A stretch of DNA of 64,000 bases from Octopus vulgaris (taxonomy: Eukaryota): positions 51,274,001-51,338,000 of the forward strand of contig OX597823.1 of assembly GCA_951406725.2 (NCBI GenBank), written 5' to 3'. Shown here one piece after another: positions 8,668 through 57,730 of the stretch. The translations under genes were made by a program, and so were the position numbers. Under the pieces are notes generated by a model, which was given only the letters and a program-made list of their open reading frames with translations, did no database searches and was not told the DNA's origin. Numbering within the stretch: position 1 is the first letter of the stretch; the number at the start of each line of letters is the position of its first letter.

Positions 8668-8973
8668 TGAAAGAAGGTTCGAAAATGCAATTTTAAAGAT
8701 GTTCATTGACTTGACCGGTTTTACTTTTTTAGGAAAAATATTGTCAAAAGTAAAATGTAAAGCTTTGTATAAACTTTGTTGTGTTAAATATTGGTTACCA
8801 CAAAAGTATTATAACTGTATTTTTGCATTTTAATACTTTTGTGATAACCAGTGCTCAACACAACAAAGCTTATATAAAGTTTTACATTTTACTTTTGACA
8901 ATCTTTTTCTAAAAATGTGAAAACGGTCAAATCAATAAACATCTTTAAAATTGCATTTTCAAACCTTCTTTCA
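8668..8973. mobile_element. About 306-bp foldback element between TA repeats, each arm with a hammerhead-like motif
   Basis: The left half TGAAAGAAGGTTCGAAAATGCAATTTTAAAGATG... is the reverse complement of the right half ...CATCTTTAAAATTGCATTTTCAAACCTTCTTTCA, centred near 8820. Another terminal fragment lies at 12582-12612. Confidence 0.85.
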
Positions 8974-9412
8974 TATATATATATAATACCTCCTACAAGG
9001 ATGTCAGCTTCAATTAACTATATTCATTATGAATCTCTAATTTAATCTTTGTAATTTGAATTAATTGGGCATGGAAACGATCGCATGATCTCGCAGGTGT
9101 GTTACTTCTGCTAGATATTAATGTATTGTAATCTCTCTCCATATCACCTATTGCGGTTTAATATTTAAGATTTCGACGACTCCTCCGTGGTGTTGTTATG
9201 TATTTTTGATAAAATATATATATACAAATTTAAAAAATAATAATAGTAAAATATACATTACAGTATTGTTTCTACTTTGCGGATTTTCCCCTATCGTAGG
9301 AGACTGGGGAACGTAACACCCGCGATAATCAAGGGATTACTGTATATACACACAAACACACACACATATACACACATATATATATATATGTGTGTGTGTG
9401 TTTATGTAGATA

Positions 9413-9791
9413 TACTTGCGTCAGAAATTAATTAGCACTTCTCAAATTTCTACATTAAATAGGTTAAATCAATTAACCTATGAGCTGTTCAAAACGTCTT
9501 ACGCGATGAAAAAACTTAGTATGGTGTGATTTCGGTCCTTGCGAGGCGCTACCTATATCTATTAAACAAAGGAAGTTTGTCTGCATCCGCACTCCAAGTT
9601 GTTGTTGCACTGCTATGTCAACATCATAAGGCTGTAGACTCTCAAACTGCTCTGCAAACAAAGTTACGTCATCGTTCTGCGCAACAGTGAACTCGCAACA
9701 AAGCAATAGTTCGAGATATGGCCACTAGGTGACAGCACATACCTTGAGTGAAGAGCAAATCAAGGGTGCTAATTAATTTCTGACGGTAGTG
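9413..9791. mobile_element. Tc1/mariner-type MITE
   Basis: Terminal inverted repeats CGTCAGAAATTTAATTAGCAC and GTGCTAATTAATTTCTGACGGTAGTG, with TA at both ends and a non-coding interior. Confidence 0.8.
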
Positions 9792-9884
9792 TATATATAT
9801 ATATATACACACACACATATATCCTATATATGTATGTATGTATGTATGTATATATGTATATATATATATATATATATATATATT

Positions 9885-10386
9885 TAAAAGGAGAATTCAG
9901 GTAGATTCAACAATTTAGAATAATAATACATATACTCAGTCATAAAACCGGTGTATGCTGCACACCTGGAGAAGTACGTTGCGTCGAAACAATTGTAGTG
10001 ATTAAAAGACTTACTCTTTGTAAGCCTAGTACTTATTCTACACACACACACACATATATATATATACATACACACATATATCTATATATGTATGTAAGTA
10101 TGTATATATATGTATGTAGTGTATATATATATATATACACACACACATATATCTATATATGTATGTATGTATGTATATATATATATATATATATATATAT
10201 ATATATATATATATTTAAAAGGAGAATTCAGGTAGATTCAACAATTTAGAATAATAATACATATACTCAGTCATAAAACCGGTGTATGCTGCACACCTGG
10301 AGAAGTACGTTGCGCCGAAACAATTGTAGTGATTAAAAGATAAACGTTCAGTTATACCCCTTCTTGTTGACTCCAGCTTTTTCAAT
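9885..10386 (+). mobile_element. Tandemly duplicated TA-inserted mini-element with a hammerhead-like motif (9885-10009 and 10214-10386)
   Basis: Near-identical copies. Motif cac-CTGGAGA...GAAACAATTGTA-gtg at 9963-10000 and 10294-10331. Confidence 0.7.
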
Positions 10387-10469
10387 TATATATATATGTA
10401 TATGAATATAATGGTTCGCATATGCATATATATACACATACATATACACAAACTTACACACACAGAGAT

Positions 10470-10685
10470 ATAATGTTCGTTTATAATGTTTGTTAGATTT
10501 TAAACTTCTAGCTTTAAGCTCACTTAAATCATTTATTTATATATTTGTAGCATTGTTAAACAAAGGAATTTTCGAAACCGGTTTGGTATTTTAATAAATC
10601 TATTGCAAAATTGATAAATGACTCCATGTTATGAGAGTCAGGTGCATTTTCAAGCCCGAAAGCAAATTCTCCCTTTTTCTTCCCA
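10470..10685 (+). mobile_element. TA-terminated mini-element with a degenerate hammerhead motif
   Basis: tagca-TTGTTAA...GAAACCGGTT-tggta (10548-10588), then AATAAA and a pyrimidine tail running into (TA)n. Confidence 0.5.
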
Positions 10686-54261: not shown

Positions 54262-54500
54262 ATATATAAAACTGAGAATGTGGGTCTGTCTGTCTGTTGT
54301 CTGTGTGTGTGTTTCCCTAAAACTTGACAACTACACAACCAATTTCATTCAAATTTTACACATGCCTTACTTAGTGTCCGGGGAGTGTCATCGGCAAAAA
54401 AAAAAATATTTTCACCGTTTATACGGAAGCATTTTTATTAGAATGCCTTCGAACTCATTAAAAGTAAAATGGAAGAAATACAAACCTATTTCGGATTGAT
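54262..54500 (+). mobile_element. Non-autonomous Helitron-like 5' region
   Basis: TATATAAAACTGAGAATG, (GTCT)n, AACCAATTTCATTCAAATTTT: the 5' layout typical of animal non-autonomous Helitrons. No matching 3' CTAG end found. Confidence 0.5.
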
Positions 54501-54555
54501 CACCGACAAAGACGGTGAATCTAGGATAACACTAACTAACGAAATAAAAAATTAA

Positions 54556-54920
54556 ATTAAAGAAAAGACTATTGTCTATAAAGTATACGATGGAGAGAAA
54601 AAAAAGATTTGAACACCCGGAGGAAAGCACCATCAAAAAGTGTCTTGGTGCGTCTATGAAAGATATCTAACCAGGGGTGGAAAATACGCCACAATAGAAG
54701 CAAGGTTCGAGTCAACGGAGCGTGCAAGGGAGTACTCGACTCGAACCTTGCAAAGTGGAAATATTTTATTTTTACCTTTATATCTGGGACGTAGGACGTC
54801 CCGGATAAAAATTTAAAATGTCCCCCAAGAAGTAGAGGTAGGCTGGATTGTAGCAACACTTCTATACAGGAGGAAAGACAATATACAATAGATTGAAATT
54901 GCAAGAGGCGGGCCTACAAT
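54556..54920 (+). pseudogene. Probable LINE ORF1 (RRM-like) fragment
   Basis: IKEKTIVYKVYDGEKKRFEHPEESTIKKCL, then after a frameshift YLTRGGKYATIEARFESTERAREYSTRTL...PLYLGRRTSRIKI*NVPQEVEVGWIVATLL. Family assignment is by resemblance only. Confidence 0.45.
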
Positions 54921-55809
54921 TCCAGTCTGTTATATATTTTGAGTATTGTTATCACTAGCGATATCAAGATATAACTTTGTATTTTGTATTTTATGTGTAG
55001 ATGTATATATATAGATGTACATGTAATACGTACACATATATATATATACACATATATACATGCACTAGGACTATGACCCGGCAACACACGCATACACACA
55101 CACACAAACATTCGCATCATGATGCATGTTTAACATAATTAGATATATATATGACTGTGTATGCATAAATGTATATAACGTTATATGTGGATAATACACA
55201 GACACAGACGCGCGCACACACACAAACATACACATACACACATGTACACAAAGATGAACAAAAATGCACGTGCATATTACTAATTAAATAGTAGCATATA
55301 TGCGTGTATACACCTATGTCTGCATACAGGCATGCGTACATAAATGCATACGTTCAAAGAACTATTGTGCATACGTACTGAATGACACTGACACAGCATG
55401 AACTGCGACCGTTGATATTAGCTGTTTCTTTTATCATGCAACGATACTAATCACGTGCATTGAGAAAGATCTCTGGACCAAGGCATGTGAAAAACACAGG
55501 ACGTGGGGGAAAAATACAAACTTTCTTTTGATACAGTATCCTTGTTTGTCTGAAAAACTTTTACAGAAAACAAAAAAAAAAAAACATGAAATATTACTGC
55601 TTGGCAGTTATAAGTTATAGTAAACTAGTGCAATATGTTATACAGTATCGTAGTGTAAGTGAGGTGTGATTGTGTGGTAGAATAACGGGTTGTGGTTGAA
55701 GTTAAAATATTTTTCAGAATTCAAGTGATGTGAATTTTACGCCATCTTGTTGCAGTTTTCACATACTTTTAACATATCAAATGTATGATATGTTATCTCT
55801 TATTTTTCG

Positions 55810-56885
55810 CCTTTAATTGTTTAACTGATTCAGTCATTAGACACCGACCATGCTGAGCCACTGCCTTGGAGAATTTTAGTCGAATGAATCAACCACAGTA
55901 CTCATTTCTTCTTTGAAAGAACTATACTTATTCTATCGCTCACTTATGCCGAATGACTAAACACACCAATTTTTACGGAACCGCTAAGTTACAAGGACAA
56001 CAGCATCGGTTGTCAAGCGATGTTGGGGTACAAACACAGATATACAAACATATACACACACATACAGACATATATATATATATATATATATATATATATA
56101 CACACACATATATATATACGACGGGCTTATTTCAGTTTCCGTCTACCTAATCTACTCACAAGGCTTTGGTCGGCCCGAGACTATAGTAGAAGACACTTGC
56201 CCAAGGTGCCACGCAATGGGACTGAACCCGGAACAATGTGATTGGTAAGCAAGCTACTTACCACACAGCCACTCAAGCGCACGATTGGTTATTTTCAGTC
56301 TCCGTCTACCAAATCCACTCAAAAAGCTTTAGTCGGTCCGTAGGTATAGTAGAAGACACATGAAGTGGGGATGGATCCGAACTATATGGTTCTGAAGCTA
56401 GCTTCTTACCGCACAGCCACATCCATATATGTATGAATATGAATATAGATAAATAATTATGGCGTAGGAGTGCCTGTATGATAAGTAGCTTGCTTATGAA
56501 CTACATGGTTCTGGGTTCTATCCCACTGCGTGGCACCTTGGGCAAGTGTCTTCTACTATAGCCTCGCGCCAACCAAAGCCTTGTGAGTGGATTTGGTAGA
56601 CGGAAACTGAAAGAAGCCCGTCGTATATATGTATATATATATATATATATATATATATATATATATATATATATGTATATGTATGTGTTTGTCCCCCCAA
56701 CATCGCTTGACAACCGATGCTGGTGTGTTTATGTCCCCGTAACTTAGCGGTTCAGCAAAAGAGACTGATAGAATAAGTACTAGGCTTACAAAGAATAAGT
56801 CCTGGGGTCGATTTGCTCGACTACAGGCGGTGCTCCAAGATGGCCACAGACAGATGACTGAAACAAGTAAAAGAGAGTAAAGAGT
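55810..56885. mobile_element. SINE B cluster: minus 55810-56275, minus 56280-56420, plus 56460-56885
   Basis: Family B head, body and tail motifs in both orientations. Confidence 0.9.
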
Positions 56886-57104
56886 ATATATATATATATA
56901 TATATATATATATATATATAGATAGATAGATAGATAGATAGATAGATAGATAGATAGATAGATAGATAGATAGATAGATAGATAGATAGATAGATAGATA
57001 TAGATAGATTGATAGACAGATAGAGTGACATATAGATATTTATATACATACACATATACACTCATTCTCACATACATACACACACACATATGAAAGATGG
57101 ACAT

Positions 57105-57730
57105 GGAAATAGAACAGAAGTAAGTCTACGACATTTCAATTTAAGAGGGAATTTAATAAAACTGAATTTAAAAATCATATGAAGAAAATTTTACCGGTAG
57201 ACTTTAAAAAAAATATAGTTTGATATAGAATTCAAAGTATGAGAGAGTGAGAGAAGAGGTGTCTATTTTCTAAAAGAAATCTTTGTACGTTCCAGCCAAG
57301 GGAGTCGCTAAAAAGCGTTTATTGAATGTATTTTATGTTTCCTTGTGTGTATGAGTGTATGAGTGTGTGTGTGTGTGTGTGTGTGTGTGTGTGTGTGTGT
57401 GTATGTGTGTGCGTGTGTGAATTGTGCTAAATGTCCTTTCAATGTGTTTGGAAATTGACCAGCTGCGAGCTGATAGGTGTACATGTTGTGATGTCTTCTT
57501 GAAGAAAGAACTAGGATTTTCCTTTGAGTTAGGTGTATTCTATTTTACTTCAACTTTTTATAAAATTTTTTAAGATGATAAGATAAGATTCTTATCATTC
57601 GAATGATAAGAATCTTATTCGAGATTCATCGAAACCGGTAATATTTTCTTTATATAATTTTTAAAATCATCTTTATTAAATTCCCTCTTAAATTGATATG
57701 TCTTAGACTTTCTTGTGTGCTATTTCTACC
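57105..57730. mobile_element. Inverted pair of hammerhead mini-element arms (57105-57235 minus, 57535-57730 plus)
   Basis: CAATTTAAGAGGGAATTTAATAAA / TTTATTAAATTCCCTCTTAAATTG. Plus arm aaaattt-TTTAAGA-(long hairpin)-GAAACCGGTA-atatttt. Confidence 0.75.

Follow-up and report, generated by a model that had tools for sequence, protein, structure and literature searches.

Hammerhead-bearing inserts beside (TA)n tracts in Octopus vulgaris as probable 3' ends of several Penelope-like element families

Repeat families in the window

The window analyzed here, a 64,000-nt stretch of the Octopus vulgaris genome (contig OX597823.1 of assembly GCA_951406725.2; positions below are 1-based within it), contains ten short inserts that an earlier note, made from the sequence alone, had read as hammerhead-bearing mini-retroelements aimed at (TA)n tracts, along with a Penelope-like element (PLE) at 35616-36712 that was proposed to mobilize them. 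All ten are present where the note had placed them, although the two at 9963 and 10294 are a single insertion, locally duplicated (9786-10009 versus 10116-10340, 97% identity). Searches of the octopus's own genome sort the ten sites into seven dispersed repeat families: A (12431 and 34737), B (8891 and its mirror), C (9963 and 10294), D (10548), E/G (18908 and 37912, E and G being one family), F (34979), and H (57562). The bodies of these families have only short or low-complexity matches in common. Their positions are given in Table 1.

The CUGANGA core ascribed to all of the inserts is found at none of the ten sites. The cores in the window copies read UUGACAA, CUGGAGA, UUGUUAA, CUGUGGA, CUAAUGA, CUAUUGA, UCGAAGA, and CCGACGA, with that of family H disrupted; no named copy in the window has a full CUGANGA or U3-A8 core, and the sole CUGANGA core in the window belongs to the PLE at 35616-36712. 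A strict hammerhead descriptor run on both strands of the window returned no match, and a relaxed one returned only three, with cores at 9966, 10297, and 12435. An Rfam scan of the window gave no hammerhead among the matches listed (150 of 366), those listed being microsatellite-driven microRNA models. For 13 of the 16 element 3' ends in the window, a (TA)4 or longer tract lies within 33 nt.

Table 1. Hammerhead-bearing and related elements in the window
Feature	Positions	Strand	Core and remarks
Family B, inverted copy	8669-8814	-	core UUGACAA at 8747, G12 lost
Family B, 3' end	8816-8972	+	U3-A8 core UUGACAA at 8895; stem III damaged; then (TA)n
C5 (another PLE family), 3' tip	9881-9958	-	too short for own hammerhead; parent (L349) is an open reading frame between direct repeats
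Family C, fragment	9958-10007	+	core CUGGAGA (G6) at 9966; stem I 3 bp; stem II weak
Local duplicate of C5 and C pair	10212-10393	.	C5 minus 10212-10289; C plus 10289-10393, core at 10297
Family D, 3' end (Neptune/Nematis-type PLE)	10474-10672	+	consensus core UUGAUAA; window core UUGUUAA at 10553
Family A, 3' end (Neptune-type PLE)	12371-12554	+	core CUGUGGA (U6) at 12435; then (TA)n
Family E/G, inverted 5' copy	18908-18950	-	decayed hammerhead, core CUAAUGA at 18945
Family E/G, sense copy, decayed	18971-19097	+	
Family A, copy truncated below core	19164-19269	-	
Degenerate family A-like hammerhead copy	30122-30218	+	71% to consensus; absent from the earlier note
Family A, older subfamily	34703-34866	+	core CUAUUGA at 34741; TA tract shared tail-to-tail with family F
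Family F, terminal repeat of full-length Hydra-type PLE (L346)	34882-35058	-	consensus CCGAAGA; window core UCGAAGA at 35039
Hydra-1_Obim copy, 5'-truncated, broken	35616-36712	+	end of reverse transcriptase thumb, CxCX5C linker, GIY-YIG
Hammerhead of the 35616-36712 copy			core CUGAAGA at 36640; GAAA changed to GUAA at 36670
Family E/G, fold-back	37887-38063	.	minus part 37887-37951, core CCGACGA at 37945, fused with sense part 37956-38063; flanked by (TA)n on each side
Family H, inverted copy	57088-57198	-	
Family H, 3' end	57540-57781	+	consensus core UUGAUAA; window core broken by 36-nt palindrome 57583-57618

Hammerhead architecture of the family consensus sequences

Consensus sequences were constructed from the best 22-30 genomic copies per family, sets that contain the copy from the window itself, along with a few loci that overlap, and that lean toward the window's subfamily. 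Each short-family consensus contains one minimal type-I hammerhead on the sense strand, in the order stem I, core, stem II, GAAA, palindromic stem III, UH, stem I', as the earlier note had described it, but CUGANGA is missing from all seven, and the canonical core appears in the family of the PLE at 35616. The cores are CUGUNGA in A, UUGACAA in B, CUGGAGA in C, UUGAUAA in D and H, and CYGAYGA in E/G; family F has CCGAAGA in its young subfamily and CUGAAGA in eight of 17 copies taken from outside its own search. Expressed by position, U3-A8 marks B, D, and H, U6 marks A, G6 marks C, and C4 marks young F and part of E/G. Dinucleotide shuffles of the seven consensus sequences produced a match 0, 3, 0, 3, 1, 4, and 3 times per 1000, in a test tilted toward the hammerhead reading because the relaxed descriptor was written after the cores had been seen. 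In an alignment of 15 copies of family F, 91% of the stem positions are paired, versus 33-47% when the alignment is slid.

A random sample of 100 evenly spaced 10-kb stretches (1 Mb in all, from contigs C1-C20, loci L241-L340) was scanned with the same descriptors. With the strict descriptor there were 14 rows, representing 13 sites, versus 0, 0, and 0 in three shuffles, and with the relaxed one 57 versus 4, 5, and 8. Family A itself has 19-20 matches in this megabase, F has 14, and E/G has nine. Extrapolated roughly from 1 Mb to 2,800 Mb, the genome would contain about 36,000 strict and about 140,000 relaxed motifs. At least six further minimal-hammerhead families, absent from the ten sites, were seen in these stretches, including a sister of family A with a canonical core and a U3-A8 family encountered several times. 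Judged by their sequences, the motifs are real but ordinary in kind: decayed hammerheads of known PLE type.

Insertion ends and TA tracts

The proposed targeting to TA tracts holds. In the random megabase, 23 of 31 complete 3' ends have (TA)4 or longer no more than 30 nt away, versus a background of 6.1% (p 5e-22). The 5' side has such a tract in 10 of 46 cases, and two control repeats lie beside TA in 7 of 108 and 4 of 26.

The predicted cleavage site does not define the ends of the elements, and the ribozyme-processed ends that the earlier note had inferred are not seen. Across the seven families the site lies 44-211 nt inside the 3' end. For 19 random copies of family A, the 5' starts range from 86 to 641 nt from the 3' end, with the predicted cleavage site at 94, and no sampled 5' end of A or F falls within 5 nt of its predicted site. 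Because the ends lie elsewhere, the RNA that was copied must have spanned the hammerhead uncut, or re-ligated.

The length of sequence shared upstream of the hammerhead varies within families, from about 100 to over 1000 nt. An inverted copy often lies upstream (8 of 25 loci for B, 11 of 25 for D, 11 of 25 for E, 10 of 25 for F, 19 of 25 for H, and 24 of 25 for G, whose query is itself a hairpin), whereas direct upstream repeats number 0-2 per 25-30 loci in the short families. Inverted copies with a one-sided tail are an arrangement described for PLEs; in F and G the inverted copies consistently stop 62-63 nt short, a tail of fixed length being missing from them.

Parent elements

The copy at 35616-36712 begins at the end of the reverse transcriptase (RT) thumb, has stops and frameshifts, and contains no RT core. 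The consensus of 30 copies of its family has one open frame and a canonical CUGAAGA hammerhead, with the predicted cleavage site about 30 nt from the 3' end. Longer copies include RT, one of them RT plus endonuclease (EN) (L348); RWK and DKT motifs are found in another (L041), and the linker is CxCX5C. Under the clade motifs defined in section 11 of Craig et al. 2021 (PMC8557442), a Neptune-like label was rejected, and the element belongs to the Hydra clade. Its protein stretch, hammerhead stems and core, and (TA)n preference match those in the supplement entry for Hydra-1_Obim, a Hydra-clade PLE of Octopus bimaculoides for which a hammerhead and a preference for (TA)n are listed (Craig et al. 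2021, PMC8557442). For this one family, a description in cephalopods exists. Broken and lacking an RT core, the window copy cannot mobilize anything, and its matches to the short families are simple ones of at most 16-22 nt, so the earlier note's suggestion that elements like it serve as mobilizer is not upheld.

Several of the short families have parents of their own. Family F occurs as two direct copies on either side of an open reading frame (ORF) for RT and EN with RWK, DKT, and CxCX5C (L346), with an inverted copy upstream. F shares these motifs with Hydra-1_Obim but is a different Hydra-type family, with C4 in its young subfamily. Four of 30 family A loci run upstream, in the sense orientation, into a GIY-YIG ORF with a CX2-5CxxC linker; three of the four have a CUGU core, and the fourth has a decayed core, also U6. 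The family A parent (L347) comprises thumb, linker, and EN, and its thumb region resembles Neptune1_Ap in the published alignment. Family D has a broken PLE ORF upstream in sense at two loci (L342 and L341), the first with thumb, linker, and EN. Like Neptune-clade PLEs, the A and D parents combine a CX2-5CxxC linker with GIY-YIG, but their RT core was not recovered; D could be Nematis-like, and A differs in its U6 core.

Each of the two C sites is fused to a 78-nt piece that represents the 3' tip of a further PLE family, C5, whose parent has an RT-EN ORF between direct repeats (L349). The C5 hammerhead lies about 430 nt upstream of the 3' end and has an unusually long stem II of about 75 nt (L349:8450-9310, L063, L066, L067, L070). 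The 5' arm of its stem I can alternatively pair just behind the core.

Taken by the features that characterize EN-containing PLEs, RT with C-terminal GIY-YIG is present in the 35616 family, F, and C5, while A and D show thumb, linker, and EN; direct repeats of the pseudo-LTR (long terminal repeat) kind are present in L346 and L349, with inverted, one-sidedly tailed copies present as well; and the hammerhead lies inside the terminal repeat.

Origin of the inserts

We consider the inserts to be 5'-truncated and inverted 3' ends, or pseudo-LTR pieces, of several separate PLE families, each likely copied into (TA)n by its own element's enzyme and each with its own minimal hammerhead, and we put the probability of this explanation at roughly 0.8. 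Directly observed are the hammerhead-shaped consensus sequences, the TA at 3' ends, the inverted pairs, and the ORF-bearing parents of A, D, F, C5, and the 35616 element. Since A, D, and F have ORF-bearing PLEs of their own, no mobilizer acting in trans is needed for them; and since these three run into their own PLE ORFs, with F forming direct repeats, the inserts are probably for the most part element ends rather than mini-elements sharing one helper. From established PLE biology, the GIY-YIG endonuclease would nick (TA)n, and reverse transcription would be primed at the nick from the 3' end of the RNA. It would usually end after 100-400 nt, leaving mainly the hammerhead-bearing tail, with frequent inversion. 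A palindromic stem III needs a partner, and the hammerhead would work solely in dimeric form, where transcription runs through both terminal repeats of a full-length element such as L346 or through a tandem one; cleavage there would release or circularize the unit RNA. The solo, decayed copies in the window are likely inert. Dimer-cleaving PLE hammerheads were reportedly described by Lunse et al. in 2017, a work cited in PMC6765202 and PMC10085705.

The inserts resemble metazoan minimal PLE hammerheads in much else. Those described in the text of Cervera and De la Pena 2014 (PMC4209133), for which no cleavage as monomers and low cleavage as dimers are reported, likewise have a short stem I and a palindromic stem III, an extra base after A9 (here in several families), the U3-A8 covariant, mostly solo copies from truncated PLEs, and opposite-strand pairs 100-700 bp apart. 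The density seen here, about 13 strict and about 50 relaxed motifs per Mb, is far above the top counts in that text, about 9,000 per genome; for the giant squid, 235 hammerheads are given in the text of PMC6962438. The octopus repeat annotation of PMC13282606, in its accessible text, has no mention of "ribozyme". Apart from the published Hydra-1_Obim, the elements seen here are members of PLE families not yet catalogued, and the kind of system is already known; what they add is the scale given above and core variants kept across subfamilies.

Several results weigh against this explanation. No parent ORF was found for B (0 of 25 loci, 0 of 5 extended copies), none for C in the three 10-kb loci searched, and none could be tied to E/G or H, near copies of which ORFs lie in L343 and L350; B, C, E/G, and H make up six of the ten sites in the earlier note. 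None of the 16 ORF pieces run against Pfam, six of them from parent ORFs, gave a significant family, so clade calls rest on motifs and the published alignment. The stem covariation that the earlier note had offered as a check did not emerge in F: among its 15 copies, two doubly changed pairs are not above shuffles (337 of 500). Monomer folding energies show no extra stability over shuffles (z -1.29 to +1.05). A composite short interspersed nuclear element (SINE) with an inner TA tract, whose halves served as two further control queries, also gave matches beside TA, in 60 of 131 and 23 of 102 cases. Finally, among the 19 random copies of family A, seven have their 5' start at 184-193 nt from the 3' end, a mode that could mark a short non-autonomous subfamily.

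Some features of B, E/G, and H nevertheless point the same way as A, D, and F. Words in stems I and III of E/G recur at the 3' end of the Hydra-clade consensus printed just before Hydra-1_Obim in the supplement of PMC8557442, and B and H have in common with D a U3-A8 core and an ACCGGU stem III. These likenesses suggest the same PLE origin.

Core variants and the question of cleavage

Family A, with about 50,000 copies, departs from the canonical core in a regular way. Forty copies taken from outside its own search all have U at position 6; position 7 varies more than any other of the 186 columns (A14/T12/C8/G6), and 39 copies have a base other than G at position 17. A sister family that shares the stem II arms retains A6. 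The pattern fits a hammerhead fold apparently under selection with U6. Literature searches gave no report of an A6U hammerhead, the one aimed at A6U returning a single paper, on twister; Lunse et al. 2017 or the supplement of PMC4209133 may already list U6, G6, or C4, cores that do not appear in the text of PMC4209133.

One possibility, compatible with the PLE origin argued above since it concerns function only, is that the U6, G6, and C4 cores no longer cleave, the fold now being a recognition or stability signal or a relic carried by successful lineages. We regard this as possible, though as the less probable state of affairs. A natural A6C hammerhead has a kobs below 0.1 per min, and U4C, known from a viroid, lowers activity in vitro, according to PMC3088659; minimal PLE hammerheads are weak even as dimers (text of PMC4209133); the predicted cleavage site is never an element end; and short C5 copies spread without their hammerhead. 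The family A columns, by contrast, with position 7 free and position 17 avoiding G, vary as those of a working hammerhead do, and U3-A8 is known in PLEs (PMC4209133, text) and is an active covariant (PMC3088659, text).

A bolder reading of the sequence patterns, which we hold to be less likely than not, is that some cores fixed in octopus PLEs (U6 in the Neptune-type family A, with position 7 free, and G6 in another) break an invariant catalytic rule, and that they either retain cleavage as dimers or now serve some purpose other than cleaving; the roughly 100,000 motifs would then amount to a natural mutational scan of the core. Cleavage by U6 or G6 dimers would call for an exception to the accepted core rule and would mean that descriptor searches have overlooked many animal ribozymes. 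Failure to cleave would inform the debate on the purpose of PLE hammerheads.

Less likely explanations: non-autonomous elements and chance matches

It is unlikely, but worth weighing, that a substantial part of the inserts are true non-autonomous mini-elements, SINE-like or retrozyme-like, replicating from short RNAs of their own with PLE enzymes supplied in trans. The failure to find parents for B, C, E/G, and H, the size mode of family A, and the existence of non-autonomous PLE derivatives (bioRxiv 10.64898/2026.07.22.740005) all speak for it. Yet many B copies continue upstream for 700 nt or more and H ones for 500-700 nt, several A copies start at an AT-rich word right after (TA)n, as microhomology joining would explain, and the ends lie away from the predicted cleavage site. 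The non-LTR retrozymes of Li, Clavereau, and Pollet (the same preprint) likewise have type-I hammerheads and derive from PLEs, but are tandem units, each with a hammerhead, and here the copies are solo or inverted and several run into ORFs. Retrozymes would be recognized by tandem hammerhead units with no ORF-bearing parent, and here direct repeats are rare and A, D, and F have parents. For B, C, E/G, and H, and for the 185-195-nt size class of A, a non-autonomous origin may yet apply.

Chance matching in AT-rich repeats, with which the empty strict scan and Rfam result for the window would agree, is so improbable as to be refuted at the family level by the descriptor and shuffle scans (eight family consensus sequences fit, all on the sense strand, with 0-4 matches per 1000 shuffles each, and the random megabase exceeds its shuffles) and by the match of one family to the published hammerhead of Hydra-1_Obim.

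Other features of the window

A 29-nt 3' tip of family B lies on the minus strand at 12583-12611 and shares its TA tract with the neighboring family A copy, a tail-to-tail arrangement resembling that of A and F at 34866-34882. Contigs from four sequencing sets span 34660-35075, covering that A and F pair, and are of a kind that cannot show ends, strand, or expression.

Decayed fragments at 46640-46984, 29124-29462, and 61906-62528 resemble an RTE-type RT, a zf-RVT region with a Pfam E of 0.0046 (below the cut-off), and a mariner-type transposase, the RTE and mariner labels having no Pfam support. SINE-like repeat families are abundant (429-655, 754-991, 2391-2782, and many other copies), one of them giving 183 matches per random megabase. 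More fold-backs are found at 10695-10774, 14475-14686, 56293-56612, and 39291-39591. Transcription of the many inverted repeats of this sort could give rise to double-stranded RNA.

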